A stretch of DNA of 64,000 nucleotides from Thermoanaerobaculia bacterium (GTDB lineage Bacteria; Acidobacteriota; Thermoanaerobaculia; Gp7-AA8), in the NCBI GenBank assembly GCA_036522835.1, contig DATDFB010000057.1, positions 3,906-67,905 of the forward strand, given 5' to 3'. Positions 3,309 through 47,062 of the stretch are shown piece after piece. The stretch's first letter is position 1. Each line of letters starts with the position of its first letter. Both the position numbers and the translations under genes were made by a program. The notes under the pieces were generated by a model. That model was not told the DNA's origin. It made no database searches and worked only from the letters and a program-made list of their open reading frames with translations.

Positions 3309-4806
3309 CCGTCACCTTCGTCACGCCGAACGGCAGCAGCATCGCGAAGTTCGGCGCGACGGCGTAGAACGGGCGGAGGTCGATCGGATTGCCGAGGAGC
3401 GCCGTGCCCGCTTTCGCACAGAGATCGCCCGTGCGGAGCATGTTCTCGATCGGGCGCTTCACGCGCATGGTCGGATAGAGCGCGTTCACCTCGTCGCGCA
3501 GGTTGCCTTGCGGCTTCTCTTTGTACTCCTTCGTGAACGACGTGACGGCGAGCTGATTGCCTTTCAGCTCCGCCTGCCAGGCCACGTGCGGCGCGCCCTC
3601 GGACGGGAAGCCGTCGTACCCGCCGTGGAAGAGAACCCCCGCCGGCGTCACCTCGGCGGCCATGTCGATGAGGTGTCCGCACGCGGCGGCGTTGACGTAT
3701 GACACATCCTGCCTGGCGATGCGATTCTGCGCGTCGTAGGTGTAGCGCGACGTGACGGCCTGCCCGTCGAGCACGAGCTCCTCGCGGTCGAGCAGCCACG
3801 CCTCGCCCGCTTTGTGCGCTCGGAAGTCGAGGAGGCCGGCGCGCTCGAGGTAGTCGGCGCCCTGCACGAGGCCCGGCCCGCTCAGGATCTCGCCGTCGTA
3901 CGTCCACCCCTCGCGCTTGCGCGCGTCCTGGATCTGCTTCTGCTTCACCGGCGTGTAGCGAAGGTCGTCGAACGGCACGCACGACAGCGTCTCGTTTCTG
4001 GCGACGCGGTCGTCGGCGTAGAACGACGTGCGCGTCGCGCCGTCGCTGCACGCGCGCGCATTCGCGTACGGCCCGTGCCAGCAGCGCGGGCACCACATCG
4101 CCCCCGTGGGGAGGCGGAGGCCGCAGAACGAGCAGACGATCTTCGTCTTCATGTCGTCGATCTCGCTCTCGAGCGCGAGGATGTGCGGCTCGATGTCCGC
4201 CTTTGACGCGGCGTCGAGGCCGGCGTAGCGGTGGAAGCGCTCCGCGGCCGTCGCCAAGTCGCCGCGCTTCTCGAAGATCACCGCCTCGTTGTAGACCGGC
4301 GCCGGGTCGTTCGGCCGCTTCTGCTCCGCGTCCTGAAAGAGCTTGAGCGCGGCGTCGTAGTCGCCCTTTTGGTAGAGGAAGCGGCCGCGCGTGAAGATCT
4401 CCGTGTACTCGTCCTCGGCCTGTTTCTTCTTCTGCAGCTCGCGCTGGAAGTCGAGCTCGAGCTGGAGCTTGGCGAGGTTCTCCTTTTCCGGTCCGGCCGG
4501 GTAGAGCTGGTTGTAGCGGTCGACTTTCTGCTGGGCCTCGGAGACGCGCCCGGCCTTGGCGAGCGTGAGGGCCATGTCGTACAGCACGCCGGCGACGTCG
4601 GGCTGCAACTGATCGGCCTTCGCGAACTGCGCGTAGGCCGCGGTGTAGTCCTTCATCGAATAGAACTTCTGGCCGAAGAAGACGGCCTTGGTGAACTCGT
4701 CCTCCGGCTGCTGCGCAAGACCGAATGCAGAATGCAGGATGCAGAATGCAGAAACGAGCAGCACCGCTCGCCATTCTGCATTTTGCATTCTGCATTCTGC
4801 ATTCAT
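3289..4806 (-). CDS. TPR-repeat protein with internal zinc-ribbon (CxxC...CxxC) and a C-terminal domain of unknown function
   Basis: The real protein is the C-terminal 505 aa of the 1115-aa ORF-track entry. The start ATG at 4804-4806 makes an ATGA overlap with the stop of the upstream gene. Motif IVCSFCGLRLPTGAMWCPRCW. The N-terminal 25 codons lie inside a family-D palindromic repeat. Confidence 0.55.
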   Translation of the reverse strand: MNAECRMQNAEWRAVLLVSAFCILHSAFGLAQQPEDEFTKAVFFGQKFYSMKDYTAAYAQFAKADQLQPDVAGVLYDMALTLAKAGRVSEAQQKVDRYNQLYPAGPEKENLAKLQLELDFQRELQKKKQAEDEYTEIFTRGRFLYQKGDYDAALKLFQDAEQKRPNDPAPVYNEAVIFEKRGDLATAAERFHRYAGLDAASKADIEPHILALESEIDDMKTKIVCSFCGLRLPTGAMWCPRCWHGPYANARACSDGATRTSFYADDRVARNETLSCVPFDDLRYTPVKQKQIQDARKREGWTYDGEILSGPGLVQGADYLERAGLLDFRAHKAGEAWLLDREELVLDGQAVTSRYTYDAQNRIARQDVSYVNAAACGHLIDMAAEVTPAGVLFHGGYDGFPSEGAPHVAWQAELKGNQLAVTSFTKEYKEKPQGNLRDEVNALYPTMRVKRPIENMLRTGDLCAKAGTALLGNPIDLRPFYAVAPNFAMLLPFGVTKVTVTTPAK

Positions 4807-4808
4807 TG
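4720..4808. repeat. Palindromic repeat family D (AGAATGCAGAATGC...GCATTCTGCATTCT), variant copy
   Basis: ccgaatgcagaatgcaggatgcagaatgcaga...ccattctgcattttgcattctgcattctgcattc. Related to the copies at 16331 and 19814. Confidence 0.75.
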
Positions 4809-5915
4809 CAGCAGCGCCTCCACCACCCCGCCCACCCAATCGTCGATCACCGGCGACGTTGCCAGATACGAGTAGAGTGCGTGGCGCTTCTGCTCCGACG
4901 GCGCGCTCGGGTTGCGCAGCACGCCCGCAGGATCGGGCATCAGGTCGACCACGACGTCGCGCGCGTCGCGCGGCGCCCAGTGCGAGGGCATGTCGCTGCC
5001 GAAGAGCTTCGACACGAGCGCAAGGCGGTCGCTTTCGCCGTGCGCGGCGCGCGCGGCGGCGGCGAGGCGGCCCTTCGAGCTCTCGATGAGCATGCGAAGA
5101 TTGGATAGCACCTGCAGCCGGCGCGTGCAGGCCTCGAGGATCTTGACGTCGGAGAGGGCCGTGCTGGCGGCGAGGATCTTCTGGATGCGGTCGGTCTCGA
5201 CGGAGATGAACGCGTCGGCCGGATCGTCGGCAGGGGGCGCCGGCTCGTCGACCTTCACCTCCGGCGTGGCCGGCGTGGCCACCGGCGCGGGCGGCATGGC
5301 CGGCGTCGGCACGATCTCGGCGAGCGGCAGATCGGAGATGGCCGGCGCATCGCCGATCTCGCTCTTCGGCATGCGCAGATCGGCCGGCTCGTTGGCGATC
5401 GCCGCCGGCGGCGGAGCGGGCGGCAGCGGCACGAGCTTCGCCGCACCGAACGGCGAGCCCGCCGGCGCGGCGGGGTCGCGCATCAAATCCGAATCCGTCG
5501 GCACTTCGGCGTCCATCAGCCGCTCGCGCACGCGCAGCCGCGTGTCGCCTGCCTGGCGCAGTTGAGCGTTGCGGGCCACGTCGTTGAGGTACGTCGCGCT
5601 CATGTCGCAGTGGCAGGGGCCGAAGTTGTCGGGCAGGTAGCGCTTGTCGTTGCGCTGGCGGTAGAAGTCGACGACCGCGGCGTTGTGGCGCATGGCCGCG
5701 TCGCGGGCGCGCTCGCAGGCGGCCTGCGAGGCGAACTGGTTGATGCCCGAAAACTCGTTGAAGCCGCGTAGTTCCGGGTTGTACATCTGCACGTGGTAGT
5801 GGAAGACGTCGCAGTGCGCCGGGGGCGTCGCAGAAGGCGGGCAGAGCAGCGCCTGCCCGAGGGCCGAGCCCGCCGTCACCGCCGCCACGAGAAAAACGCT
5901 TACGCGAAGCCGCAT
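4803..5915 (-). CDS. hypothetical secreted protein with Pro/Ala-rich linker
   Basis: Signal-peptide-like N-terminus MRLRVSVFLVAAVTAGSALGQA. Central PAPPPAAIANEP...PAMPPAPVATPATPE linker. The start ATG sits in the terminus of a family-B repeat. Confidence 0.5.
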   Translation of the reverse strand: MRLRVSVFLVAAVTAGSALGQALLCPPSATPPAHCDVFHYHVQMYNPELRGFNEFSGINQFASQAACERARDAAMRHNAAVVDFYRQRNDKRYLPDNFGPCHCDMSATYLNDVARNAQLRQAGDTRLRVRERLMDAEVPTDSDLMRDPAAPAGSPFGAAKLVPLPPAPPPAAIANEPADLRMPKSEIGDAPAISDLPLAEIVPTPAMPPAPVATPATPEVKVDEPAPPADDPADAFISVETDRIQKILAASTALSDVKILEACTRRLQVLSNLRMLIESSKGRLAAAARAAHGESDRLALVSKLFGSDMPSHWAPRDARDVVVDLMPDPAGVLRNPSAPSEQKRHALYSYLATSPVIDDWVGGVVEALLQ

Positions 5916-5977
5916 GTGGAGCGCGCCGGCCATGCCGGCGCCGTAAGAGCGGCGGCATGGCCGCCGCACTCCACAGA
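5911..5977. repeat. Palindromic repeat family B (CATGTGGAGTGCGGCGGCCATGCCGCCGC hairpin type), full copy
   Basis: tgtggagcgcgccggccatgccggcgc / gcggcggcatggccgccgcactccaca inverted arms with a small loop. Related copies at 11935, 39177, 48433, 50644 and 51916. Confidence 0.8.
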
Positions 5978-16330: not shown

Positions 16331-16427
16331 ACGGAAACTTAGAACGCAGAATGCGAATGCAGAATGAAGAAAGCTTCGCCGGCGATTTCTCAATTCTGCA
16401 TTCGCATTCTGCGTTCTGAATTTCCGT
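16331..16427. repeat. Palindromic repeat family D, full ~97-bp copy
   Basis: cacggaaacttagaacgcagaatgcgaatgcagaatgaagaaa...tttctcaattctgcattcgcattctgcgttctgaatttccgtg. Near-identical to the 19814 copy. Confidence 0.85.
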
Positions 16428-16717: not shown

Positions 16718-17776
16718 ATGCGAGTCCTGCACCTCGCCGCCGGAAACCGCTGGACCGGAGCCGCCGCGCCGGCGTTCGCCGAGGTGGCGGCGCTGCGCGA
16801 GGCGGGAGTCGATGCGCACTACGCCTACGTCGGCGGCTACAAGCTCGAGCAGAAGCTCGCCCACGTCGGCTTCGCCCACCCCGCGATCGCCAAGGCGCAG
16901 AATCCGCTGTCGTTCCTGCGCACAGCCACGAGGCTCGAGCACCTCATCGACCACCACGGCTTCGACGTCGTGCACGCGCACCTCACCTACGATCACGTGC
17001 TGGCGCGGTTCATCGCCAAGCGGGAGAAGGTGCGGATCGTGCGGACGTTCCACTCCCGGCGGGTGATCCGCGGCGACGTCTTCACGCGGGCGCTCGTCCG
17101 GCGCACCGACGCGATTTGCGTGATCAACGACGCGCTCGCCGAGGCGGCGCCGATCCGCGGCCGTTTCGCGCTCTACACACCGCCGCCGCTCGACACGCGG
17201 CAATTCACGCCCGAGGGGCCGGACTTGCGCGGGGCCTACGGCGTCGAGGGCGATGCGCTGCTCCTCGTCGCCATCGGCAAGCTCGATCCCGCGCGCGGCT
17301 TCGAGGACGTGCTGCGGACGTACGCACTGGTACGGCAGGCCATCGCCACGGCGCGGCTGATGATCATCGGCCACGGCCCGCACCGCCCGGCGCTCGAAGC
17401 GCTGGCGAGCTCGCTGCAAATCGAGCCGATCTGGGCCGGTTATCACGAGGACGATCTCGCCGAGCACTACCGCGCCGCCGACGTGCTGCTCTTCACCGCG
17501 CGCGGCTCCGACGAGGGCCACCGCGCCGTGATCGAGGCGATGGGCTGCGGCGTCGTGCCGGCGACGTATCGCCTCGACGGCATGCCCGCGATCCTCGGCG
17601 AGCTCGGCGCGGAGTCGCTGGCGGCGTCGCCGGCGCCGCAGGCGCTGGCCGAGCGCGTGATCGCCATCGCCCAAGGCGATCTCGCCGCATCGCGCCGCGC
17701 GGCGTTCGCACGGTCGGCGGAGTTTTCGTACGGGAAGGCCGCGGAGCGGCTGATGAAGCTGTACGAGTCGCTCTAA
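16718..17776 (+). CDS. glycosyltransferase family 1 (GT4-like)
   Basis: MRVLHLAAGNRWTGAAAPAFAEV N-terminus. C-terminal GT1 motif region ARGSDEGHRAVIEAMGCGVVPA. The ORF-track start at 16520 is an upstream artifact. Confidence 0.8.
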   Translation: MRVLHLAAGNRWTGAAAPAFAEVAALREAGVDAHYAYVGGYKLEQKLAHVGFAHPAIAKAQNPLSFLRTATRLEHLIDHHGFDVVHAHLTYDHVLARFIAKREKVRIVRTFHSRRVIRGDVFTRALVRRTDAICVINDALAEAAPIRGRFALYTPPPLDTRQFTPEGPDLRGAYGVEGDALLLVAIGKLDPARGFEDVLRTYALVRQAIATARLMIIGHGPHRPALEALASSLQIEPIWAGYHEDDLAEHYRAADVLLFTARGSDEGHRAVIEAMGCGVVPATYRLDGMPAILGELGAESLAASPAPQALAERVIAIAQGDLAASRRAAFARSAEFSYGKAAERLMKLYESL

Positions 17777-18396
17777 ATCGTTCGCAGCAGCGCCCGCACC
17801 GGACTGGCATCCCCACCCCGAATCCGCAGCGGCGCCGCGATCAGCTCGTACGCCCCCTCGGCCACGCCGTCGAGCACGAGCCCCTCGAGGTTGGCCATGT
17901 CGTGCTCCGCGAGCGCCTGGTGCGACTCCAGCGCCTTCGACTCGAACGGATCGACCGACGGCGTGTCGATGCCGACGAGGATCACGCCATGCTGGTGCAG
18001 CACGTCGATCACCGCGGGCGAGAGGCTGGCGAAATCGTCGTTCCAGTTGCGCGGATCGGGAAACGTGCCGGTGCGAAACAGCACGCGCGGCGCGGTGATG
18101 GCCTTGCCGGCGATGTGCATCGGGCGGATGCGGTCGCCGCGCTCGACGTTGACGTGCACGACGATGCACTGGCCGATGTAGTAATCGAGCGAGCGCGAGG
18201 CGATGTCGGCGCCGCCGGCGGCGTAATGGCTCGGCGCGTCGGCGTGCGCGCCGGCGTGGAGCGTGGTGCGGACGTCGGAGAGCGTCAGGTGCGCGCCGGC
18301 GTCGATGTCGAGGCTGACGTTGCGCGCGAACGGCGTGTCCCCGGGCCAGACTGCGACGCCCGCGTCGAGCACGGGCGAGATGTCGATGAGCGTCAT
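17773..18396 (-). CDS. kynB: cyclase-family protein / kynurenine formamidase (arylformamidase)
   Basis: 207 aa. Cyclase-family metal-binding motif region HAGAHADAPSHY...HVNVERG. Conserved length. Confidence 0.75.
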   Translation of the reverse strand: MTLIDISPVLDAGVAVWPGDTPFARNVSLDIDAGAHLTLSDVRTTLHAGAHADAPSHYAAGGADIASRSLDYYIGQCIVVHVNVERGDRIRPMHIAGKAITAPRVLFRTGTFPDPRNWNDDFASLSPAVIDVLHQHGVILVGIDTPSVDPFESKALESHQALAEHDMANLEGLVLDGVAEGAYELIAAPLRIRGGDASPVRALLRTI

Positions 18397-18400
18397 ATGA

Positions 18401-18479
18401 GTGTCATTCCGAGCCGCGAAGACGGCGAAGAATCCCGTGCCTGCCGGCAGGGGGTCCCTCGCTCCGCTCGGGATGACAC
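18401..18479. repeat. Palindromic repeat family A, full copy (intergenic)
   Basis: gtgtcattccgagccgcgaagacggcgaagaatcc...ctcgctccgctcgggatgacac. Confidence 0.8.
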
Positions 18480-18484
18480 GGCGG

Positions 18485-19816
18485 TCATGCCGAGGCGATC
18501 ACTTTCAACTCGACGAGGATCGGCGTCGGCAGGGAATCGACGCCGACCGTCGTCCGCGTCGGCTGGATCTTTCCGAGCGTCTCCGCGTAGACGCGGTTGA
18601 AGCGCTCGAAGTCGCGCTTCATGTCGGTGAGGTAGACGGTGACGTCGAGAACTTTGTCGAGCGAGCTGCCGGCCTCCTCGAGGATCGCCCTGACGTTCGC
18701 GATCGTCGCGCGCGTCTGCGTCTCGATGTCGGGCGCCGGCACCTCTCCCGTCCCCGGTTTGCGCGGGCCGACGCCGGAGAGGAAGAGGAGGTTGCCGACG
18801 CGGCGCGCGTGCGGGTATGGGCCGACCGGCGGCGGCGCCTTCGGCGTGACGAGCACCTCAGGCGTCTCTTCGCCGGGCGGCGGCGCGGCTGCGGCGAGAA
18901 CGTTGTGCGTCTCCAGTCCCGTGCCGCTCGACTGCGCGAAGGTGATCGGCGCCCCTTCGTCGAACTCCTTCTCCCACTCGATCTCTTTCTGCGGGTTCGG
19001 CGTCAGCTCGACGATGGCGTTGCCGGTGCCCCACACCGGCTGGTAGTCCCACACCTTGCCGTCGTAGCGGTTGTGCTCTCCCATCAGCGCGGCCAGCCAC
19101 CAGATGGCCTTGAAGCCCATGTCGGCGTTCGCTTCGCGGGCGAAGTCGCGCGCGACCTGGGCCACGTCCTCGAGCCGCCCCTCGCCGAGCATCTCCAGGA
19201 TCTTGCGGTTCCACTCGTCGTCCTTCGCCGAGGAGACGCGGTCGTGGGCCGGGTCGATGTCGCCGACTTCGTAGCGGTTGGAGAGGTTCGTGACGACGAC
19301 GACGACGGTTTTCTTGCCGTAGTGGTCGATGGCCGCGCGGCCGGCCATGCCGAGGGCGCGCGTCTCCTCGCGCTCCGCGTAGATGTTGCAGGACACGACG
19401 GAGGCGGGGACGGCGTTGTCCGGATTGAGGAGCTTCAGCGCCACGACGGTGCCGGTGTCGATCGGAAAGCCGTGATAGCTCACCTCCGCCGCCTGCATGC
19501 CGTTCTGTTTGCAGATCGCGCAGTAGAGTTTTCCGAATTCCGGATCGACGCGGAACTCGTAGGGGATCTCGCCGAACTGGTACCAGTTCTGATCGACGAG
19601 GATCCACTTCGGCGCGGGGTCGGTCTGGAAGAGGTGGCCGATGACGGAGAACCACTGCGTGGAGTAGACGAGGATCAGCTCCGCGCCCGACGCGGCGATC
19701 TCGCGGCCGACGGCCTCGTAGCTCGCACGCAGCGACGCCCAGCCGGGGCTCTTCTCCGGCGCGAGCAGGACGTGGGGTTGGCCGGGGACGAGATAAGCCT
19801 TCTGGATCATGGCCAC
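18485..19816 (-). CDS. fusion protein: LigB-family (class III extradiol dioxygenase-like) N-terminal domain plus RidA/YjgF (deaminase) C-terminal domain
   Basis: N-terminal ~300 aa are LigB/AmnB-like (YLVPGQPHVLLAPE..., HGFPIDTGTVVAL). C-terminal ~120 aa, VGNLLFLSGVGPRKPGTGEVPAPDIETQTRATIANVRAILEEAGSSLDKVLDVTVYLTDM...TRTTVGVDSLPTPILVELKVIA, are RidA-family. Confidence 0.65.
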   Translation of the reverse strand: MAMIQKAYLVPGQPHVLLAPEKSPGWASLRASYEAVGREIAASGAELILVYSTQWFSVIGHLFQTDPAPKWILVDQNWYQFGEIPYEFRVDPEFGKLYCAICKQNGMQAAEVSYHGFPIDTGTVVALKLLNPDNAVPASVVSCNIYAEREETRALGMAGRAAIDHYGKKTVVVVVTNLSNRYEVGDIDPAHDRVSSAKDDEWNRKILEMLGEGRLEDVAQVARDFAREANADMGFKAIWWLAALMGEHNRYDGKVWDYQPVWGTGNAIVELTPNPQKEIEWEKEFDEGAPITFAQSSGTGLETHNVLAAAAPPPGEETPEVLVTPKAPPPVGPYPHARRVGNLLFLSGVGPRKPGTGEVPAPDIETQTRATIANVRAILEEAGSSLDKVLDVTVYLTDMKRDFERFNRVYAETLGKIQPTRTTVGVDSLPTPILVELKVIASA

Positions 19817-19926
19817 GGAAAATTAGAACGCAGAATGCGAATGCAGAATGAAGAAAACGGAGTCCGTTGGCCAAGGCGCTCCGGTTTTCTCAATTCTGCA
19901 TTCGCATTCTGCGTTCTGAATTTCCT
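19814..19926. repeat. Palindromic repeat family D, full ~113-bp copy
   Basis: Same termini as the 16331 copy, with a longer central loop. Confidence 0.85.
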
Positions 19927-19930
19927 TGAT

Positions 19931-20611
19931 TTAGTGGACGTACGTCTCCCGCTCGACGACGTCTTTCCGCGACTGGATGATCGACGTCGCGAGCAGCGCG
20001 CGCCGGCCGATCTCGTCCCACTGCGCGGTGCGCACGAGGTCCGGTACGGCGAGCGACGAGCCGAGGTTGACGGCGACGCAGCCGGCGTCGAGGTAGGGCT
20101 CGATCATGTCGAGGGCCACGGGGCCGCCGGCGAGCATCTGCACGTCGCGGATGGGGCCGCGGATGGTGCGGATGTAATCGGGGCCGCCGAGGTGCGGTGC
20201 CGGGTAGACCTTGACGATGTCGGCGCCCGCTTCCCAGGCGCGGATGATCTCGGTCGGCGTGGCCGCGCCGGCGATGGAGAGGAGGTCGTTCTCCGTCGCG
20301 TACTCGATGATCTGGTAGTCGGTGTGCGGCGAGACGATCACGTGCGCGCCGGCGCGGCGGGCCAGCGCGGCGTCGTTGGCGCTGCGCACGGTGCCGGCGG
20401 CGATGACTACGTCGGCCGCGGCGTAGCGAGCGGCGAGCTTGGCGATGAGCTCGAAGGCGTCAGGCGTGGTGAGCGTGACCTCGATGATGCGCACGCCGTT
20501 GCGCGCGTACGCGTCCGCCACGGCCTCGGCCGCCTCGGCGGAGTTTTCACGGACGACGCCGATGATCTGCTCGGTGCGGGCTTTTTCGAAAAGTTCGGTG
20601 CGGAGGGACAT
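19931..20611 (-). CDS. eda: KDPG / 4-hydroxy-2-oxoglutarate aldolase
   Basis: 226 aa class I aldolase. IGVVRENSAEAA...RIIEVTLTTPDA...VIAAGTV pattern typical of Eda. Confidence 0.82.
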   Translation of the reverse strand: MSLRTELFEKARTEQIIGVVRENSAEAAEAVADAYARNGVRIIEVTLTTPDAFELIAKLAARYAAADVVIAAGTVRSANDAALARRAGAHVIVSPHTDYQIIEYATENDLLSIAGAATPTEIIRAWEAGADIVKVYPAPHLGGPDYIRTIRGPIRDVQMLAGGPVALDMIEPYLDAGCVAVNLGSSLAVPDLVRTAQWDEIGRRALLATSIIQSRKDVVERETYVH

Positions 20612-20620
20612 GGCCGAATT

Positions 20621-22939
20621 CTAGTTCAACCGCGCGGCCAGGTCCCTGAACTCCGTCTCCTCCCGCAACACATCCAGCCGCGGATCGACCTCGATGAACA
20701 CCAGCCACGCGCTCCGGTCCTCGTACGCCTCCCGCAGCTTCGCCAGCGCGGCCGCCTTCTCGCCCAACCCCGCATAAATGATCGCGATGTCGTACGGCGA
20801 GATGTAGCGCGTCTTGGCCTGCTCCGAGAGCATCGTCAGGATCAGCTCCGCCTCCCGCCGCTGACCGGCAATGGCGCGGGTGTGGCCGAGCATGGCCAGC
20901 AAGATCGGCACGCGGTCCGTCTCCAGCGCGCGCTGGAACGACTGCAACGCCTCCTCGTAGCGGCCCTGCTGCCCCAAGGCCATGCCGCGCCAGGCCTGGG
21001 CGGGGATGAACTTCTCGTCGAGCTCCAGCGCCTTCTCGAAGCGGCCGATGGCGGACTCGTAATCGCGCGCGAAATAGAACGGCCAGCCGCTGTGCACGAA
21101 GATGATGCGCGACAGCGGATCGAGCTCCACCGCCTTCTTCACCTGCTCGAGCGACGCGTCGAAGCGGCCGCGCGCGCAGAGGAGCATGGCGTAGCCGTCG
21201 TGCGCCGTCGCGTAGTTCGGATTCAGCTTGATGGCGCTCGTGTACGCCGCCTCCGCCCCCTCCCAATCCCACTCGTACCACCACTTCACCGCCGCCAGCG
21301 ACGCCCACGCCTCCGCGAGCGACCCGTCGATCTTCAGCGCCTGCTCGGCCGCCGCCTTCGCCTTCGGCATGGCCTCGCGCGGCGGCAGCGGGATGTTCGT
21401 CGCCAGCGTCATGAGGCTGTCGGCCAGCCCGGCGTACGCGCCGGCGAACGACGGATCGCTCTCGATGGCCTCCTGGAAGTGGACGATCCCCTTCTTCAGA
21501 CTCTCCTCGGTGCGCTTGTTCCACTGATAGCGCCCCTTGAGATAGAGCTGGTACGCCTCCGTGTTTTTCGTCGACGTCTTGCGCAGCCGCTTCTTCTCCG
21601 CGCCGGTGAGGCGGATGCGCAGCGCTTCGGCGATCTCCTGCGACATCTCTTCCTGCAGCGTGACGAGGTCGGCGATCTGGCGGTTGTACTGCTCGCCCCA
21701 GAGGTGCGCGCCATCGAGGGAGTCGACCAGCTCGACGTTGATGACGATGCGGTCGCCGACGTGCTTCACCCGCCCGCTCAACACCGCGCGCACGCGCAGG
21801 TCGCGGCCGACGGCGCGCGGGTCGACTTCGCGGCCTTTGTAGCGGAACACGGTGCTGCGCGCCATCACCTTGAGCTTCGGCAGTTGCGAGAGCTTGTTGA
21901 TGACACCCTCGGTCACGCCGTCGGAGAGATAGTCGGTCTCGGCGTCGGCGCCGCCGTTCTGGAACGGCAGGACGGCGATGGAGTCGATGGCTTTCGACTT
22001 CCGCGTGCGCGGGCGCGGCAGCAGGTCGATGCGCGTCGTGGAGCTCGACGAGATCGCGCGCAGCGTCAGCGCCAGGTCGCGCGCGGACTGAAACCGCTGC
22101 AGCGGGTTCTTTTCCACGCACCCTTCGATGACGCGCTGGAACTCCGGCGGCACGGCCTCGGCCAGCTCGTCACGCGAGACGTCTTCCTTGAGAATGGCCG
22201 CGATCGTGGCCGCGCCGGAGCCGCGCTGGAACGGCTTCTTCGACGTGACCATCTCGTAGAGGATGCAGCCGAGGGAAAAGATGTCCGCAGTGCCGTCGAC
22301 CGCCTCGCCCTTGAGCTGTTCCGGCGCCATGTAGGCGAGCGTCCCCACGATCGTCCCCGGATCGGTGCGGAACTTCCGCGTCGGCAGGTTGCCGGTGTCC
22401 TCGCCGGTGAGGTACGGGTCGGTCTGGGCGAGGCCGAAGTCGAGGATCTTGATGCGCCCTTCGCGCGTGAGGAAGACGTTCTCCGGCTTGAGATCGCGGT
22501 GGACCACGGCGCGCGAGTGCGCCGCCGCCAGGCCTTCGGCGATCTCCGCGCCGATGTCGACCGCGGCGCGCCATTCGATGATCGCGTTCGCGAGCCGGGC
22601 GCGCAGCGTCTCCCCTTCGAGCAGCTCCGTGACGACGAAGAAGGTGCCGTCCTGGTCGCCGTAGTCGAAGATGGAGAGGACGTTCGGGTGCGACAGCGAC
22701 GCGATGGCGCGCGCCTCGCGCTCGAAGCGCGCCAGGGCATCGGCGTCGCGCGCGGAATCGGGCAGCAGCACCTTGATGGCCACGTCGCGGCCGAGGCGGG
22801 GGTCGCGGCCGCGGTAGACCGCACCCATCCCTCCCTCGCCGAGGAGCGTAAGAACTTCGTACGGACCGACGCGGGAGCCTGAAGCCAGCATGCCGAGCGG
22901 TCCAATGCTAATCTTTTCCGCAATGGTCCTCATTAACAA
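20621..22939 (-). CDS. Ser/Thr protein kinase with C-terminal TPR domain
   Basis: Kinase subdomains: GEGGMGAVYRG, VAIKVL, HRDLKPENVFL, DFGLA, APE. C-terminal ~350 aa of TPR repeats. Met17 (22891) is an alternative start. Confidence 0.85.
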   Translation of the reverse strand: MLMRTIAEKISIGPLGMLASGSRVGPYEVLTLLGEGGMGAVYRGRDPRLGRDVAIKVLLPDSARDADALARFEREARAIASLSHPNVLSIFDYGDQDGTFFVVTELLEGETLRARLANAIIEWRAAVDIGAEIAEGLAAAHSRAVVHRDLKPENVFLTREGRIKILDFGLAQTDPYLTGEDTGNLPTRKFRTDPGTIVGTLAYMAPEQLKGEAVDGTADIFSLGCILYEMVTSKKPFQRGSGAATIAAILKEDVSRDELAEAVPPEFQRVIEGCVEKNPLQRFQSARDLALTLRAISSSSTTRIDLLPRPRTRKSKAIDSIAVLPFQNGGADAETDYLSDGVTEGVINKLSQLPKLKVMARSTVFRYKGREVDPRAVGRDLRVRAVLSGRVKHVGDRIVINVELVDSLDGAHLWGEQYNRQIADLVTLQEEMSQEIAEALRIRLTGAEKKRLRKTSTKNTEAYQLYLKGRYQWNKRTEESLKKGIVHFQEAIESDPSFAGAYAGLADSLMTLATNIPLPPREAMPKAKAAAEQALKIDGSLAEAWASLAAVKWWYEWDWEGAEAAYTSAIKLNPNYATAHDGYAMLLCARGRFDASLEQVKKAVELDPLSRIIFVHSGWPFYFARDYESAIGRFEKALELDEKFIPAQAWRGMALGQQGRYEEALQSFQRALETDRVPILLAMLGHTRAIAGQRREAELILTMLSEQAKTRYISPYDIAIIYAGLGEKAAALAKLREAYEDRSAWLVFIEVDPRLDVLREETEFRDLAARLN

Positions 22940-30456: not shown

Positions 30457-32157
30457 ATGCGCTGGAGCCAGTCCTTCATTCACACCCTGCGCGAAGTTCC
30501 GGCCGACGCGGACGTCGTCAGCCAGAGACTGATGATGCGCGCCGGCATGATCCGCAAAGTAGCCGCCGGAATTTACACCTATCTCCCCCTCGGCCTCCGT
30601 TCGATGCAGAAGCTCGAGGCCATCATCCGCGAGGAGATGAACCGCGCCGGCGCGGTGGAGCTCCTCGGGCCGACCATCCACCCGGGCGAGTTGTGGATGG
30701 AGTCGGGACGCTGGCAGCGCTACGGCAAGGAGCTCCTGCGCATCAAAGACCGCCACGAGCGCGACTTCGTCTACGGCCCCACGGCCGAGGAGGTCGTGAC
30801 CGACGCCGTGCGGAACACGCTCAACTCCTATCGACAGCTCCCGATCAACCTCTATCAGATCCAGACCAAGTTTCGCGACGAAGTGCGGCCCCGCTTCGGC
30901 CTCATGCGCGGGCGCGAGTTCACCATGAAGGACGCGTACTCCTTCCACGCCACGGCATCGTCGCTCGACGAGACGTACGAGAAGATGCGCGACGCCTACA
31001 GCGCCATCTTCCGCCGCTGCGCGCTCGACCACGTGCCGGTCGAGGCCGACACCGGCAACATCGGCGGCAGCGCCTCGCACGAGTTCATGGTGCTGGCGCA
31101 GTCGGGCGAGGACGCGGTCGTGTCGTGCCCCAACTGCCGCTACGGCGCGAACGTGGAGAAGGCCACGTCGAAGTTCTTCCTCGACGAGCCGGAGCCCGCG
31201 CCGATGGAAGCGATGGCCGAATTGCACACGCCGGGAACGCAGACGATCGACGACGTCGGCCGCTTCCTCGGCAAGCCGACCTCGCAGCTCGTCAAGACCC
31301 TCGTCTTCGACACCGACAAAGGGTGTCTGATGGTCCTCGTGCGCGGCGACCGCGAGGGGAACGAGGTCAAGATCAAGAACGTCTCCGGCGCCGAGTGGAT
31401 GGAGATGATGCCCGACGCGCGCTTCGAGGAGGCCACGGGCGGCCCGGTCGGCTATTGCGGTCCGGTCGGGACGAAGGCGGCACGCGTGATCGCCGACGTA
31501 TCGCTCAAAGGCCACGTCAACTGGATCGTCGGTGGCAATAAGAAGGACTACCACCTCGGCGGCGCGAATCCCGGCCGCGACTTCCCCGAGCCGGAGTACG
31601 CCGACGTCACGACCGTCTTCGCCGGCGATCCCTGTCCGCGCTGCGGCACGCCGCTGGAGATCAACCGCGGCATCGAGGTCGGCCATGTGTTCAAGCTCGG
31701 AACGAAGTACTCCGAGCCGATGGGCTGCACGTTCCTCGATGAGAACGGCGAGCGCAAGCCGATGATCATGGGCTGCTACGGCTTGGGCGTCGGCCGCACG
31801 GTCGCCGCCGCGGTGGAGCAGAGCCACGACGACGACGGCATCATCTGGCCGATCCCGATCGCGCCGTACACCGTCGTCGTGACCGCGCTCGGCAAAGAGG
31901 AGAGCGTGCGCGCGACGGCCGAGGAGGTCTACGCGAAGCTCCTGGCCGCCGGCGTCGACGTGCTCTTCGACGACCGCGACGAGCGCCCCGGCGTGAAGTT
32001 CAAGGACGCGGATCTGATCGGTTTTCCGCTGCGCATCGCCGTCGGCGCGAAGAGCCTGGCGAACGGCGTCATCGAGTGGAGCTGGCGCAAGGATCGCGCG
32101 AAGCAGCTCGGGCCGCCGGGCGAGGTGGTGGAGACGGTCATAACGGCCGCTCGGTAG
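30457..32157 (+). CDS. proS: proline--tRNA ligase
   Basis: 566 aa, bacterial-type ProRS. Starts MRWSQSFIHTLREVPADADVVSQRLMMRAGMIRK. Confidence 0.95.
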   Translation: MRWSQSFIHTLREVPADADVVSQRLMMRAGMIRKVAAGIYTYLPLGLRSMQKLEAIIREEMNRAGAVELLGPTIHPGELWMESGRWQRYGKELLRIKDRHERDFVYGPTAEEVVTDAVRNTLNSYRQLPINLYQIQTKFRDEVRPRFGLMRGREFTMKDAYSFHATASSLDETYEKMRDAYSAIFRRCALDHVPVEADTGNIGGSASHEFMVLAQSGEDAVVSCPNCRYGANVEKATSKFFLDEPEPAPMEAMAELHTPGTQTIDDVGRFLGKPTSQLVKTLVFDTDKGCLMVLVRGDREGNEVKIKNVSGAEWMEMMPDARFEEATGGPVGYCGPVGTKAARVIADVSLKGHVNWIVGGNKKDYHLGGANPGRDFPEPEYADVTTVFAGDPCPRCGTPLEINRGIEVGHVFKLGTKYSEPMGCTFLDENGERKPMIMGCYGLGVGRTVAAAVEQSHDDDGIIWPIPIAPYTVVVTALGKEESVRATAEEVYAKLLAAGVDVLFDDRDERPGVKFKDADLIGFPLRIAVGAKSLANGVIEWSWRKDRAKQLGPPGEVVETVITAAR

Positions 32158-32211
32158 GGGCGCACGGCGTGCGCCCTCAGCGTCCGGGCGCACGCCGTGC
32201 GCCCCTACCTG
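32153..32211. repeat. Palindromic repeat family C, full two-arm copy
   Basis: cggtaggggcgcacggcgtgcgccc...gggcgcacgccgtgcgcccctacctg. Confidence 0.8.
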
Positions 32212-32224
32212 TTATCCTTTTCCT

Positions 32225-33607
32225 ATGCGCAAGACCTTTCTTTTGCTCGCGTTAACTGCGGCTCTGCCCGCCTTTGCCCAGAACACCGACATCGAGTCCC
32301 TCTCCGGCCTGCAATTCAATTTCGGCAACCCCGGCGCCCGCTCCCTCGGCATGGGCGGCGCGTTCCTCGGCCTCGCCGACGACGCCTCGGCCGCCGAGGC
32401 GAACCCGGCCGGGCTCACCATCCTGCGCAAGCCCGAGGTCTCCATCGAGATCCGCAACTACGTCGAGCAGCAGACCTTCACCACCACCGGCACCTATCCG
32501 GACATCAGCCGCACCGACTTCAACCATTACAGCCAGCGCGTCCCCATCACCTTCGCCAGCGCGGTTTACCCGTACAAGAACGCCACCTTCGGCCTCTACT
32601 ACCACGAGGCGCTGCGCAATCAAGGCTCGGGGCAGGTCATCCCCATCCGCAACGAATTCAGCGGCGCGGTGACGGCCGACGTCCCGAACTTCTACCTCGC
32701 CAAGGGCGGGACCGCTCCGGTCACGCGCGATCAGTGCATCGCCATCAACGTCGCGGCGAAGGACGACTTCGCCTGCCTGCAGTACACCATCCTTCCGTTC
32801 CTCAGCGCGCTCGACGTCACCGAGCGCACGTTCGGCCTGGCCGGCGCGTACAAGATCGGCAAGTTCTCCTTCGGCGGCACCGTGCGCTACCAGCGCTTCA
32901 ACGAGACCGCGTTCACCTTCCGCGTCACGCCGGACTTCGATTTCTCGTCGATCTCCGTGCAGGCCACGAGTGACATCCGTGAGAACAGCGACAAGGCGAA
33001 GGACGTCAGCGACGTCACCTTCACCGCGGGCGTGAAGTGGACGCCGAACGACCGCTTCAGCGCCGGCGCGGTCTACAAGCAGGGGGCGCGCTACAAGGCC
33101 CCCACCTTCGCCGCGAACGAGGATACAAACTTCGACTTCGTCAAAGTCTCCGACACGACCTTCCACATCCCCGACATCTTCGGCGCCGGCGTTTCCGTCC
33201 GGCCCATCCCGGTGCTGACGGTCAACGTCGACGCCGTGCGGGTGAAGTACTCGAACCTCGTCGACAACTTCGTCTCCATCAACGAGTCGGTGCGCGAGAT
33301 CGACCAAGCCTACAAGGCTCCCGACGTCACGGAGCTCCACGCCGGCGCGGAGTACTTCTTCGCGACGAAGATTCCGCTGGCGCTGCGCGTCGGCTGGTGG
33401 CACGACCCGGCGCACTCGATCGAATACCGCGGACCGCTGAGCACGCCCGACCGCGTCGCCGCGGCGATCCTCTACCCGCGCGGCGAGTCGCAGAACCACC
33501 GCTCCATCGGCGCGGGATTAGCGTGGCCGCGATTCCAGGTTGATGCCGCGTATGACACCTCACCGCACTACAAGGTCGCCTCGGTTTCGATGGTTGCTCG
33601 TTTCTAG
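32225..33607 (+). CDS. outer-membrane transport protein of the OMPP1/FadL/TodX family
   Basis: Signal peptide MRKTFLLLALTAALPAFA. N-terminal SLGMGGAFLGLADDASAAEANPAGLT motif typical of FadL/TodX. Beta-barrel composition. C-terminal aromatic residue. Confidence 0.68.
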   Translation: MRKTFLLLALTAALPAFAQNTDIESLSGLQFNFGNPGARSLGMGGAFLGLADDASAAEANPAGLTILRKPEVSIEIRNYVEQQTFTTTGTYPDISRTDFNHYSQRVPITFASAVYPYKNATFGLYYHEALRNQGSGQVIPIRNEFSGAVTADVPNFYLAKGGTAPVTRDQCIAINVAAKDDFACLQYTILPFLSALDVTERTFGLAGAYKIGKFSFGGTVRYQRFNETAFTFRVTPDFDFSSISVQATSDIRENSDKAKDVSDVTFTAGVKWTPNDRFSAGAVYKQGARYKAPTFAANEDTNFDFVKVSDTTFHIPDIFGAGVSVRPIPVLTVNVDAVRVKYSNLVDNFVSINESVREIDQAYKAPDVTELHAGAEYFFATKIPLALRVGWWHDPAHSIEYRGPLSTPDRVAAAILYPRGESQNHRSIGAGLAWPRFQVDAAYDTSPHYKVASVSMVARF

Positions 33608-35519
33608 CGCGCTGCTCGTCTGCGCGCTCGCGGCGAGCGCGCAGGTGCAGGAATCGATCACCGTCAACCTCATCGAAGTGCCGGTGACGGTCGTCGACTC
33701 GAGCGGCAACCCGGTCCGCGGGCTCACCGCCGCGAACTTCAAGCTCTACGACCAGGGGAAAGAGGTCGCCGTCAGCTCGGTCGACACAATCGACTTCGCC
33801 TCGAAGGAGTCGATGAGCGCGGTCTCGCCGCTGAATCCGGCGGCGCGGCGCAAGTTCCTCGTCCTCTTCGATCTTTCCTTCTCGAAGCCGTCGTCGCTGG
33901 CGCGCGCGCAGGAGGCGGCGCGGGCGTTCGTGACCAAGTCGGTGCAGCCGCGCGACCTCGTCGGCGTCGGCACGGTCGACAAGCGCGGCTTCCGCCTCGT
34001 TGCCTCGTTCACCACGGACCGCAAGCTCGTCGCCGACGCGATCGCCAATCCGGCGCAGATGAAGACGGACGATCCGCTGCACCTCGGCCGCAGCGGCATC
34101 GCCTTCGAGCTCTCCGACCATTCGAGCGAGACCGGGAAAGGGAGAGCGGCGATGGGCGACGAGAACGTCGCCGCGCTCATGGCCGACTCCATGCGCCAGA
34201 ACCGCGAGACCGCGCGCGCCGAGGCCGAGAAGGAGATGGACTTCCTCGGCGACCTGGCCAAAACGCTGCGCAGCATCCCGGGGAAGAAGCAGGTCGTCTT
34301 CCTCTCCGAGGGCTTCGACCCGCGCTTCATTTCCGGAAGCGACGCGCGCGAGGACCTCACCTACCAGGCCAGCGTCTTCGATACGAGCGACGACAAACGC
34401 TTCGGCTCGAACAGCGCCTCCACGACACTGCGGCGGATGGCCGACGCCTTCCGCGGCTCCGACGTCGTTCTGCACGCGCTCGACATCCAGGGTCTGCGCG
34501 TCGACAACAGCATCGAGGGCGGCTTCGTCAACAGCAACGACTCGCTGCGCCTCCTGGCCCAGCCGACCGGCGGCATGGTCTTCAAGAACGCGAACAAGAT
34601 CGAGACCGACTTCGAGCGCCTCATGAAGACGGAGGAAGTCGTCTACGTGCTGTCGTTTCAGGCGCCGGCGTCGAAGCCCGGCAAGTTCCACGACCTGAAG
34701 GTGAAGCTCGTCAACGTCCCGGGCGGCGCGAAGGCCTTCGCGCGCGCCGGCTACTACGAGAGCGGCAGCGAGACGCAGCAGGAGCGCACGATGACGAATG
34801 CCGAGATCGTGATGAACGACGTGGAGCAGAAGGACTTCCGCACCGCGTCGCTCGCCGCGGCGTTCCCGACGATGACGGATGCGGCGCAGGTGCCGGTCAT
34901 CGTCGAGATCAGCGGCACCGACCTCGAGAAACAGAACGCCGTCGACTTCTACGTCTACGCATTCGATGAAGAGGGGACGGTGCGCGACCGCCTCTACCAG
35001 CGCGTGACGCTCGACCTAGGCAAGGTCGGCGCGAAGCTGCGCGCGAACGGCCTGAAGTACTGGGCCACGCTGTCGCTGCCGCCGGGCAAGTACGCGGTGA
35101 AGACGCTCGTCCTGGCCGGAGCGAAGAAAGGCTTCGCGCGCGCCGACGTCGTCGTCCCCGCGTCCAACCAGCTCACCGCCGCGCCGATCTTCGTCGACGA
35201 CAGCTCGGCCAATTGGGTGCTGGTGAAGGGAACGTCGCACGCGCAGGCGGCGGCGTATCCGTTCGACCTCAGCGGCGAGCATTTCATCCCCGCCGCCACG
35301 GCGCGCACGAAGCGCTTCGCCGTCTTCGTGCCGAACGCGAAGCCGGAGGACGTCACCTTCGAGACGACGCCGAAGGTGAAGTTCCTCGGCGCGGCAAAGA
35401 GCGGGGGGGCGACGGCGCTGGTGATGGAGCTCGACCAGGCGGTAAAGGACGTGGAGCTGACGATCCGCAAGAAGGGCGTGGCCACGCCGGAGAAGATTCC
35501 GCTGCACATCGTGCAGTAA
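33552..35519 (+). CDS. secreted VWA-domain protein (VWFA-related Acidobacterial domain, TIGR03436-like)
   Basis: Signal peptide, then ITVNLIEVPVTVVDSSGNPVRGLTAANFKLYDQGKEVAV and RKFLVLFDLSFS (VWA MIDAS region). Start chosen at ATG 33552; the ORF track starts at TTG 33540. Confidence 0.72.
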   Translation: MTPHRTTRSPRFRWLLVSSALLVCALAASAQVQESITVNLIEVPVTVVDSSGNPVRGLTAANFKLYDQGKEVAVSSVDTIDFASKESMSAVSPLNPAARRKFLVLFDLSFSKPSSLARAQEAARAFVTKSVQPRDLVGVGTVDKRGFRLVASFTTDRKLVADAIANPAQMKTDDPLHLGRSGIAFELSDHSSETGKGRAAMGDENVAALMADSMRQNRETARAEAEKEMDFLGDLAKTLRSIPGKKQVVFLSEGFDPRFISGSDAREDLTYQASVFDTSDDKRFGSNSASTTLRRMADAFRGSDVVLHALDIQGLRVDNSIEGGFVNSNDSLRLLAQPTGGMVFKNANKIETDFERLMKTEEVVYVLSFQAPASKPGKFHDLKVKLVNVPGGAKAFARAGYYESGSETQQERTMTNAEIVMNDVEQKDFRTASLAAAFPTMTDAAQVPVIVEISGTDLEKQNAVDFYVYAFDEEGTVRDRLYQRVTLDLGKVGAKLRANGLKYWATLSLPPGKYAVKTLVLAGAKKGFARADVVVPASNQLTAAPIFVDDSSANWVLVKGTSHAQAAAYPFDLSGEHFIPAATARTKRFAVFVPNAKPEDVTFETTPKVKFLGAAKSGGATALVMELDQAVKDVELTIRKKGVATPEKIPLHIVQ

Positions 35520-35521
35520 CG

Positions 35522-36145: not shown

Positions 36146-36165
36146 TCGAAGACATAATACCGGCC

Positions 36166-37332
36166 GTGGAATTCGACATCTTCTTCTCGATCTGCCAGAC
36201 GGAGGTCGACGGGTATCTGCCCGACGAGCGAACGATGTTCGCGAATTTCTTCGAGCAGGTCGAGCTCGCCGACCGTCTCGGCTTCGGCACGGCGTGGGTG
36301 GCGGAGAGCCATCTTTCGACCGAGGTGCAGAAGACCAATCCCGGCGCGGTCATTCCGCACTTCGTCGGGGAGATCGGGCTCAACACCGACATCCTGCAGC
36401 TCGCGCACCGCGTCTTCGCGCGCACGAAGCGGATCGGCGTCGGCTCAGCGATCCTGAACATCCTCTGCAACGGCGGGCCGATTGCGCATGCGGAGCGGAT
36501 CAAGACGTTCCTGGCTTTGCACGGGCTCGACCCCGAGGAGCGGCGCACGCTGACGATCGGCTTCGCCTCGGGGCGCTTCCCGTTCATCAACGTGCCGTAC
36601 GGCGTCGTGCCGCGGAATCCGGTCGAGAGCGCGGCGTGGCCCGTGGTCAAGAACAAGATTTTCGAAGAGGCGACGGAGATTTTTCTCCGCCTGCTCAAAG
36701 GGGAGACGCTCAACTCGACGATGATCGCCCCGCGCGTGCTGCGGCGCGGCGACTTCCGCTCCGAGGAGGACTGGCAGCGCGTGCTCGAAGCGCACGGGCA
36801 GTACGTCGACGACGTGCCGCTCGCGCCACGCTGGACGTTCCCGAACCTGAAGATCGTTCCGCAGGAGTCGCGCATGGACCTCCTGCGACTCTCCATCGGG
36901 TCGCACGACCCGGCGCTGCAGGCGTTCGCGAACACGTTCCTGCCGGTCGGCGTCTTCAATCTCTCCATCACGCCGGGAAAAGAGATCGAGGAGACGAACC
37001 GTCGGATGCTGACGCAGTACCACGGCGGCGGATGGGAGCGGCGCCTCATGCCGCGCACGGTGCTCGTTTTTCCGAACGAGGCGGAGGCGACGACGGCGCT
37101 CTCGAACTACTGGCGCGCGCTGGAGGGGACGCTCGACGAGGAAAAGGTGCGCCGGGCCACGAACAACGCGCTCGTCGGCGACGCCGGGACGATCGCGCGG
37201 CAGATGCGGGAACGCTTCGATCCCGCGGACCGTTTGATGCTCTGGTTCGACTTCAACAACCACGACTCCAAGCGCGTGATGCAGAGCATGGACGACTTCA
37301 TGACCAAGGTGGCGCCGAGCTTCGCCGGATGA
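36166..37332 (+). CDS. LLM-class (luciferase-like) flavin-dependent oxidoreductase
   Basis: MEFDIFFSICQ...LGFGTAWVAESHL typical LLM N-terminus. 388 aa. Confidence 0.78.
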   Translation: MEFDIFFSICQTEVDGYLPDERTMFANFFEQVELADRLGFGTAWVAESHLSTEVQKTNPGAVIPHFVGEIGLNTDILQLAHRVFARTKRIGVGSAILNILCNGGPIAHAERIKTFLALHGLDPEERRTLTIGFASGRFPFINVPYGVVPRNPVESAAWPVVKNKIFEEATEIFLRLLKGETLNSTMIAPRVLRRGDFRSEEDWQRVLEAHGQYVDDVPLAPRWTFPNLKIVPQESRMDLLRLSIGSHDPALQAFANTFLPVGVFNLSITPGKEIEETNRRMLTQYHGGGWERRLMPRTVLVFPNEAEATTALSNYWRALEGTLDEEKVRRATNNALVGDAGTIARQMRERFDPADRLMLWFDFNNHDSKRVMQSMDDFMTKVAPSFAG

Positions 37333-46810: not shown

Positions 46811-47062
46811 CGCCTCGTCAGCCGCAGTACGGCGGGCACTCGCCAGAGGTTGCGCAGCAGCAACAGACCGCGCAGTGAATGTGCTGATGCTCGCACGTAA
46901 ATCGTCACCGTTGTAGTGCGACTCGCACTCGCTCCGTCCCGGTCTCGTTCCAGGTGCCGAACGCGAAGGCAAAACCGGCGCGCCCGTTCAACTTCGCCAA
47001 GGACGGCCGGCGACGCATGGACACATCAGCGGCGCGGCCGCCTGCGCGGTTGGCGGTGTGGC

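Follow-up and report, generated by a model that had tools for sequence, protein, structure and literature searches.

An amnA::ridA fusion gene in Thermoanaerobaculia encodes a predicted iron-free dioxygenase subunit joined to a RidA-type domain and is a dispersed fragment of a conserved cross-phylum gene cluster

The 64,000-nucleotide (nt) stretch of Thermoanaerobaculia contig DATDFB010000057.1 analysed here, hereafter the window, has a GC content of 67% and carries on its minus strand a gene for a protein of 443 amino acids (aa), in which a LigB-type domain is joined to a RidA-type domain, together with kynB- and eda-type genes on either side. The LigB half is predicted to be an iron-free alpha subunit of 2-aminophenol 1,6-dioxygenase of the AmnA/CnbCa type, and the 443-aa protein is accordingly predicted to be unable to cleave an aromatic ring by itself. 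In the model favoured here, which is considered probable, this iron-free AmnA subunit is followed by a disordered linker of ~45 residues and by a RidA domain in the role of AmnD, and the protein pairs with a separately encoded AmnB. The fusion gene came about when amnA and ridA, neighbours in a cluster found in several phyla, were joined, and the window locus is a dispersed fragment of that cluster rather than a self-contained route.

Searches of the PDB with phmmer match the N-terminal domain to the alpha chains of 2-aminophenol 1,6-dioxygenases (7txy_A, 1.2e-58; 3vsg_A, 3.7e-52; 8ihg_B, 2e-50) far better than to the catalytic beta chains (E values of 1.3e-22 to 1.1e-19). In the Comamonas enzyme CtAPD, the iron is located in the beta subunit, where His13, His62 and Glu251 bind it and Tyr129 and His195 contribute to the second sphere (PMC5291488; PMC10470539). 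The fusion was aligned with CnbCb, one Thermoanaerobaculia AmnB and two known alpha subunits, and has Gly12, Gln54 and Asp232 at the positions of the three ligands, while Thr121 and Asn180 occupy those of Tyr129 and His195. The known alpha subunits display the same G/Q/D substitutions, with G or S at the His195 position. Across 73 homologues (48 type-A and 25 type-B, the locus types being defined below), G12, Q54, N180 and D232 are invariant, and the Tyr129-equivalent position varies between T, P, S and A and is never Tyr. Because the metal ligands of the beta subunit are replaced and the alpha chains match far better, the LigB half is read as non-catalytic. A sequence-only reading of this DNA had taken it for the ring-cleaving dioxygenase of 2-aminophenol meta-cleavage. 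The dioxygenase assignment fails at the metal-ligand check which that reading had itself set beforehand, since the catalytic residues are absent, though the domain is of the AmnA type and not of the MEMO type. The MEMO1/AmmeMemoRadiSam identity was considered and rejected, as PF02900 and PF01042 were the only families matched at E values up to 0.01 and the nearest solved chains are AmnA. The meta-cleavage setting itself holds, and the RidA half occupies the place of AmnD in known operons.

The C-terminal half has, by its sequence, the features of an archetypal RidA enamine/imine deaminase domain. It scores 105.8 bits against TIGR00004 (cutoff 106.25), its best solved match is PH0854 (2dyy, 1e-30), and the Pseudomonas 2-aminomuconate deaminase 6izh is matched at 9.5e-23. 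Residues with described roles in RidA (Tyr17, Gly31, Arg105 and Glu120 in E. coli numbering; PMC4433059) correspond in the alignment to Y334, G348, R421 and E436, all invariant among the homologues. Within the pathway, this half would take the role of AmnD, the 2-aminomuconate deaminase. AlphaFold2 predicts two folded domains, with residues 1-273 forming one of them, and a predicted local distance difference test score (pLDDT) below 50 for residues 281-318. Homologues range from 416 to 502 aa, and the variation falls in this linker stretch.

The three co-directional minus-strand open reading frames (ORFs) were recovered where the sequence-only reading had placed them, and eda, the fusion gene and kynB are regarded as real genes because their third-position GC of 0.92-0.93 is typical in a window of this composition. 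Within the fusion, PF02900 (LigB) is matched at residues 14-261 with 70 bits (cutoff 26) and PF01042 (RidA/L-PSP) at residues 326-442 with 103 bits (cutoff 27), confirming the earlier description of a LigB and RidA fusion between kynB-like and Eda genes. The same two-domain architecture is seen in all 120 best matches of each of two protein searches, and relatives that have it too occur in at least 503 GTDB species genomes, of which the best 80 are all Thermoanaerobaculia or Acidobacteriota metagenome-assembled genomes (MAGs). The fusion is thus neither a frameshift nor an assembly artefact. One relative used below, locus L001, encodes a protein 98% identical to that of the window.

Comparison of 82 loci from those 80 best species genomes allowed 75 to be classified into two types. 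Type A comprises 49 loci, 48 of them unique (about 60% of the 82), in which a luciferase-like monooxygenase (LLM) gene is followed by genes for an asparaginase-II-like protein (PF06089), an aldehyde dehydrogenase, often a membrane protein, a 305-aa LigB protein and then the fusion, with kynB after the fusion in 16 of the 49. The 305-aa protein is a true AmnB, as it matches 3vsg_B at 4.9e-130, is ~70% identical to CnbCb and keeps all ligands; its gene often overlaps the fusion gene, in L081 by 4 nt between the end of the one and the start of the other. The best solved relatives of the aldehyde dehydrogenase are 2-aminomuconate-6-semialdehyde dehydrogenases (4u3w, 3.2e-140), making it AmnC-like, and the asparaginase-like protein is distantly related to the class 3 asparaginases of Rhizobium etli (7.5e-21), while no close relative of the LLM was found among solved structures. 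Type B comprises 26 loci, including the window and L001, with no amnB within 10 kb; here a GTPase gene on the opposite strand, and sometimes a Ser/Thr kinase gene, precedes eda and the fusion, and kynB follows in 22 of the 26. Both types have the same downstream synteny of glycosyltransferase, Trm112, O-antigen ligase, extracytoplasmic function (ECF) sigma factor and anti-sigma factor genes. In L066 (9387-10001), a 613-nt gap separates an AmnC-like gene from the fusion and amnB is missing, which may represent deletion of the catalytic subunit.

While amnB is missing from the window, traces of the type-A arrangement are still visible. When the type-A block proteins were compared with the window by tblastn, the LLM was the sole match; it lies 16 kb from the fusion and is 76% and 75% identical to the LLMs of L081 and L106, respectively. 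The region 30457-37332, encoding ProRS, TodX/FadL, a 659-aa protein without a family, an M15 peptidase and the LLM, has the synteny found upstream of the L081 cluster. Behind the LLM come 1.9 kb in which no gene is confidently recognised, the 486-aa ORF at 37670-39130 belonging to no family, and then HflX. As the left shoulder is present through the LLM, and the asparaginase-like, AmnC-like and AmnB genes are missing after it, the cluster has been broken up in the lineage of the window. A tblastn search of the whole window with both halves of the fusion found no paralogue either.

Loci with amnB away from the fusion were found in metagenomes. Scanning with AmnB gave 80 loci with 88-96% identity to the query; the fusion directly follows in 37 and lies 1.6-2.4 kb downstream in three, while five end at the contig edge and in 35 the fetched flank contains no fusion. 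The loci with a lone amnB instead have, directly after it, a conserved gene for a 155-aa predicted secreted protein without a family (L106:8912-9379), which follows amnB in 36 of the 80 loci. Further on lie unrelated housekeeping genes; a gene on the other strand encodes a BNR/sialidase-like repeat protein, and GalU, Maf and a Mce-like gene come after it. One contig from the Joint Genome Institute (JGI), Ga0247666_1000002 (289,704 bp), holds both parts: an intact lone amnB (L139, 210.6-211.5 kb) with the motifs PHPPH, SPHW, SHRH and SEVK, and a GTPase-eda-fusion-GT4-Trm112-Wzy-sigma locus resembling that of the window (L162, P0453) at 269.0-270.4 kb. The two are 57.5 kb apart, with amnB on the downstream side of the fusion, the side on which the window reaches only 18.5 kb. 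In addition, the alpha domain is better conserved than the RidA domain, with an N/C divergence ratio of 0.82 in pairs of type A and 0.70 in pairs of type B; since this is the case in both locus types, the alpha domain gives no sign of relaxed constraint or decay after unlinking from amnB. Given the contig with both loci and the maintained constraint, it is likely that the genome of the window keeps an unlinked amnB. Thermoanaerobaculia AmnB is strongly conserved, with one cluster at 90% identity comprising 1469 member sequences (P0271 among the AmnB matches), and is ~70% identical to homologues from Planctomycetota, Bdellovibrionota and Cyanobacteriota.

The wider cluster is found beyond the Acidobacteriota. 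MAGs of Bacteriovoracia (L163), Planctomycetota (L165) and Bdellovibrionota (L166) display the order [SDR]-LLM-AsnaseII-Aldedh-AmnB-AmnA-RidA-cyclase, in which amnA and ridA are separate neighbouring genes. The proteins of L163 and L165 are 62-63% (AmnA), 53-59% (RidA) and 52-58% (cyclase/KynB) identical to those of the window. In L166, a gene for tryptophan 2,3-dioxygenase (TDO) adjoins the cluster on the opposite strand, and in L168 the order TDO-SDR-LLM-AsnaseII-Aldedh-AmnB-AmnA::RidA-cyclase is found on a single strand. Fused amnA::ridA genes also occur in L164, L169 and one JGI contig. In rough neighbour-joining trees of each half, which carry no support values, the fusions of L164 and L168 fall among the split lineages and not with those of Thermoanaerobaculia, a hint that amnA and ridA may have fused more than once. 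A further fusion is encoded on a JGI contig of 2934 nt, where the 873-aa protein P0133 joins an AMSDH-like Aldedh domain to three tandem RidA domains. Together, P0133 and the grouping of L164 and L168 with unfused lineages suggest repeated selection for tethering this RidA to enzymes of the pathway. Elsewhere, an AmnA-like LigB domain stands behind a branched-chain amino acid ABC permease domain (P0150, P0153 and P0161), and in P0153, from Rhodospirillaceae MAGs, an alpha/beta-hydrolase domain follows as well.

Among the neighbours of the fusion, kynB is an old member of the conserved cluster. The 207-aa product belongs to PF04199 and scores 221.7 bits against TIGR03035 (arylformamidase; cutoff 223.05), with 205 of the 206 profile positions covered. 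Its top matches among solved structures are without exception kynurenine formamidases (4cob, 2.7e-50; 4cog, 1.6e-48). The protein carries HAGAHADAPSH, which fits the KynB metal-binding motif HxGxHxDxPxH. The gene adjoins the fusion in 38 of the 75 classifiable loci, and the link to kynB proposed by the sequence-only reading is genuine, the amnA-ridA-kynB order being conserved across phyla. In some relatives, a 2-kb gap between kynB and the glycosyltransferase gene holds genes for a GGDEF-EAL protein and a 193-aa ORF without a family. As the amnA-ridA-kynB order is kept across phyla and two of the clusters adjoin TDO, a tryptophan-derived substrate is a fair lead. None of kynA, kynU, TDO, kynureninase, KMO, HAAO and ACMSD was found among the ~40 window genes scanned against Pfam, a scan that did not extend to some small 3'-end genes.

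The eda gene is a lineage-specific neighbour and not an old member of the cluster. Its 226-aa product exceeds the TIGR01182 (Eda) cutoff of 156.05 bits and contains DIVKVYPA and IEVTL, presumably the Eda residue context including the Schiff-base lysine. It stands beside the fusion in one lineage only (26 of the 82 loci, type B) and is absent from every type-A locus and every cross-phylum cluster examined. A role of Eda in the pathway is thus weakly indicated, as eda sits on a synteny breakpoint and is missing from other versions of the cluster. The idea of an aminoaromatic or tryptophan-derived route involving both neighbours therefore stands in part: the links to kynB and TDO speak for it, and the restricted distribution of eda speaks against including the aldolase. 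Directly before eda, on the same strand and ending 9 nt before it, lies a gene for a 772-aa Ser/Thr kinase with TPR repeats (20621-22939). This kinase is upstream of eda only in the window, L001, L038, L052 and L058; elsewhere in type B, the GTPase gene directly precedes eda.

Based on knowledge of these families, the alpha half would pair with AmnB, which would hold Fe(II) and carry out the 1,6-cleavage of an o-aminophenol. AmnC would then oxidise the semialdehyde, and the RidA half would deaminate either 2-aminomuconate, giving 4-oxalocrotonate and NH3, or the semialdehyde itself. Attachment of the deaminase to the dioxygenase complex could reduce the loss of unstable 2-amino-2-enoates by cyclisation to picolinate, while KynB would act upstream, where it probably releases an arylamine from its N-formylated precursor, such as N-formylkynurenine. 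Pairing of this kind has a parallel in M. rosaria, where AmnA and AmnB are each insoluble if expressed singly (PMC10470539). The conserved cluster in which amnA and ridA fused has the order [TDO]-[SDR]-LLM-asparaginase-II-like-amnC-amnB-amnA-ridA-kynB. In the lineage of the window, amnA::ridA-kynB stands behind eda, with the LLM 16 kb off and amnB presumably outside the window.

Several points weigh against an AmnA subunit that delivers a pathway deaminase to AmnB. First, the RidA half is archetypal, its best match being PH0854 and not 2-aminomuconate deaminase and its TIGR00004 score falling 0.45 bit below the cutoff, so that a pathway deaminase and a general RidA are not distinguishable by sequence alone. 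The AlphaFold2 model is of moderate confidence (mean pLDDT 69) and served for domain limits and linker disorder only. The two halves also differ in assembly, as RidA proteins are trimers or hexamers (PMC6742747) and AmnAB is an alpha2-beta2 enzyme (PMC10470539), two arrangements which are hard to reconcile in one fused protein. Moreover, the deaminase acts two steps past ring cleavage, with AmnC in between, and simple channelling is therefore not obvious. Finally, tblastn with the fusion halves and the type-A block proteins did not reveal amnB, amnC or an asparaginase-II-like gene in the 64 kb of the window, and the evidence that this genome has the partner comes from one related contig.

Some of these points would also fit a protein acting independently of AmnB, as a general RidA against reactive enamines and imines, with the alpha-like domain serving as an oligomerisation, solubility or regulatory module or having acquired a new binding role. 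The archetypal RidA domain, the unlinking of amnB in 26 of the 82 loci including its absence from the window, and the joining of alpha-like domains to unrelated partners elsewhere (such as ABC permeases in Rhodospirillaceae MAGs) are all consistent with such a protein. However, in type-B pairs, too, conservation is stronger in the alpha domain than in the RidA domain, kynB as a member of the cluster is still attached, and an intact lone amnB, ~90% identical to type-A amnB, is present in many Thermoanaerobaculia-type contigs, one of them with a type-B locus. Independence from AmnB is therefore thought unlikely. We also doubt strongly that eda, the fusion and kynB form a self-sufficient operon for a kynurenine-derived compound, in which formamidase, RidA deamination and aldol cleavage by Eda would proceed without AmnB. 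The genes are tightly packed in type B, to the point that in L001 the eda TAG abuts the fusion ATG and the fusion and kynB also abut, and the order is kept in 22 of the 26 type-B loci. Yet none of the three proteins can open an aromatic ring, Eda is missing from all type-A loci and the cross-phylum clusters, and the upstream side of the fusion is a synteny breakpoint, at which rearrangement may have brought eda alongside as a side effect. With AmnB encoded separately and absent from the window, the condensed, self-contained route of the sequence-only reading gives way to a piece of a larger, dispersed cluster. That a single polypeptide with a catalytic LigB/AmnB-type domain both cleaves an aminoaromatic ring and deaminates the product, as the Pfam label 'catalytic LigB subunit' and the origin of both halves in families of the amn pathway might imply, is highly improbable in view of the substitutions at two of three Fe-ligand positions and at both second-sphere positions (G12, Q54, T121 and N180), the far greater nearness to non-catalytic alpha than to beta chains, and the separate, intact amnB kept beside the fusion in most relatives.

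Returning to an AmnA::RidA protein paired with AmnB, the content of the cluster allows a tentative proposal, which we would put forward as a possibility rather than an expectation: the fusion, kynB and the LLM gene may be scattered parts of an undescribed route from tryptophan through free 2-aminophenol to central metabolism. The chemistry is deduced from gene content, the gene orders alone being observed. TDO and KynB would make kynurenine, and the LLM, a flavin- or F420-type enzyme, could carry out a Baeyer-Villiger reaction on the aryl ketone, giving a 2-aminophenyl ester of aspartate that would rearrange to N4-(2-hydroxyphenyl)asparagine. The asparaginase-II-like hydrolase could then release aspartate and 2-aminophenol, which AmnB with AmnA::RidA and AmnC would cleave, oxidise and deaminate. 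If true, the route bypasses kynurenine 3-monooxygenase, kynureninase, HAAO and ACMSD. A literature search of open-access papers returned nothing on the fusion, on aminophenol metabolism of Thermoanaerobaculia or on a route from kynurenine to 2-aminophenol.

Table 1 Features of the fusion locus and related elements in the window.
Feature	Position	Strand	Length	Basis or remark
eda, class I KHG/KDPG aldolase	19931..20611	-	226 aa	PF01081 124.7 bits; TIGR01182 164.5 bits
amnA::ridA fusion gene	18485..19816	-	443 aa	PF02900 + PF01042
Fusion N-domain (aa 1-273), predicted AmnA/CnbCa-type alpha subunit	18998..19816	-		PDB phmmer, ligand alignment, AlphaFold2
Fusion linker (aa about 274-319), Pro/Ala/Glu-rich	18860..18997	-		AlphaFold2 pLDDT, homologue lengths
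Fusion RidA-type enamine/imine deaminase domain, predicted (aa 320-443 + stop codon)	18485..18859	-		PF01042, PDB matches, invariant residues
kynB, kynurenine (aryl)formamidase, final gene of conserved cluster	17773..18396	-	207 aa	TIGR03035, PDB matches
Luciferase-like monooxygenase (LLM)	36166..37332	+		PF00296; orthologue of first gene of conserved cluster
MITE/REP-like palindromic insertion, eda/fusion gap	19825..19917	.		25-nt perfect arms, AGAACGCAGAATGCGAATGCAGAAT
Core of second small repeat, fusion-kynB spacer	18454..18477	-		Second copy at 37757-37780
MITE, miniature inverted-repeat transposable element; REP, repetitive extragenic palindromic.

Two kinds of repeats mark the locus (Table 1). 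The palindromic, AT-rich MITE/REP-like element is present in the window in two copies with the same perfect 25-nt arms, one in the gap between eda and the fusion and the other at 16341-16417, between trm112 and the O-antigen ligase gene. Its predicted RNA fold reaches -66.8 kcal/mol (z-score -11.2). Both copies are absent from the same sites in L001, and the 20-nt core GCAGAATGCGAATGCAGAAT has no exact match among the 161 fetched loci. As the GTG at 19816 is supplied by this inserted repeat, the true start of the fusion may be the ATG at 19810. Within the 88-nt spacer between the fusion and kynB (spacer fold -50.5 kcal/mol, z-score -3.0), the second small repeat, GTCATCCCGAGCGSAGCGAGGGA, folds into a hairpin; its other copy lies just past the LLM, where a type-A cluster would go on with the asparaginase-like gene. 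This repeat may mark rearrangement junctions. A scan for promoters and terminators yielded nothing promoter-like and no significant terminator excess, and has no bearing on co-transcription. Elsewhere in the window, the ORFs at 46916-50188 (1090 aa) and 4803-5969 (388 aa) have a third-position GC of 0.90-0.91 and a good coding signal and belong to no Pfam family.

The fusion, which is common in Thermoanaerobaculia and has already received the automatic annotations amnA or Rid, represents a variant of a known system. These public annotations are inconsistent, naming it either 'Rid family detoxifying hydrolase' or 'amnA', and the Pfam name 'catalytic LigB subunit' invites a ring-cleaving reading of a protein that is predicted to be incapable of cleavage. 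In NCBI MAG records, the AmnB partner is called 'tRNA U-34 5-methylaminomethyl-2-thiouridine biosynthesis protein', an apparent misannotation. The fusion of the alpha subunit to a deaminase and that of AMSDH to three RidA domains serve as Rosetta-stone links of this RidA type to 2-aminomuconate-type enamines formed after aminophenol cleavage, and both offer a handle on how cells avoid losing unstable enamines to picolinate. The more interesting lead is the cluster itself, which in Acidobacteriota, Bdellovibrionota/Bacteriovoracia and Planctomycetota combines kynurenine-entry enzymes, an aminophenol dioxygenase and two further enzymes, and thus amounts to a specific hypothesis for a new route of tryptophan catabolism.

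Compared with known alpha subunits (AmnA/CnbCa; 3vsg_A, 8ihg_B and 7txy_A), the fusion belongs to the same fold family, aligns over the full length of the subunit (residues 5-271), similarly lacks the 2-His-1-carboxylate site and carries STQW in place of the SPHW of the beta subunit; in most relatives its gene comes directly behind amnB. It differs in its C-terminal RidA domain, in the absence of amnB beside it in the window and in an identity of ~35-45% to characterised alpha subunits. With AmnD/AmnE of Pseudomonas sp. AP-3 (6izh) and NbaF, the RidA half shares the subfamily, the conserved cleft residues including the Arg105 equivalent, and the position of the deaminase in an amnC/amnB/amnA cluster, the latter in type-A relatives and across phyla though not at the window locus. 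While AmnD/AmnE and NbaF are free-standing trimers or hexamers, this RidA is covalently attached to an alpha subunit, and its closest solved relative is the generic RidA PH0854.

In the canonical amn/cnb operons (amnBACFEDHG and amnRJBACDFEHG) and the actinobacterial ARO microcompartment locus, AmnB, AmnA, AmnC and the deaminase catalyse the early steps (PMC3790839; PMC10470539), and the cluster described here has the same early-step enzymes. In contrast to the canonical amn/cnb operons, it is without 4-oxalocrotonate decarboxylase, hydratase, class II aldolase and acetaldehyde dehydrogenase, and instead has the LLM, the asparaginase-II-like hydrolase, KynB and sometimes TDO and SDR. KynB itself resembles its solved counterparts (4cob, 4cog and 4co9) in a near full-length alignment (2.7e-50) and in the HxGxHxDxPxH motif, whereas its setting differs, as kynB usually occurs with kynA and kynU and in the window clusters with amnA::ridA. 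Finally, relative to the kynurenine branch (HAAO, ACMSD, AMSDH and 2-aminomuconate deaminase; the nba genes), the ring cleaver is a two-subunit LigB-type enzyme and not the cupin HAAO, and KMO, kynureninase and ACMSD are absent from the clusters examined, while in both systems TDO and KynB provide the entry steps, and an o-aminophenol ring is first cleaved and its product then passed to a dehydrogenase of the AMSDH type and a deaminase of the RidA type.

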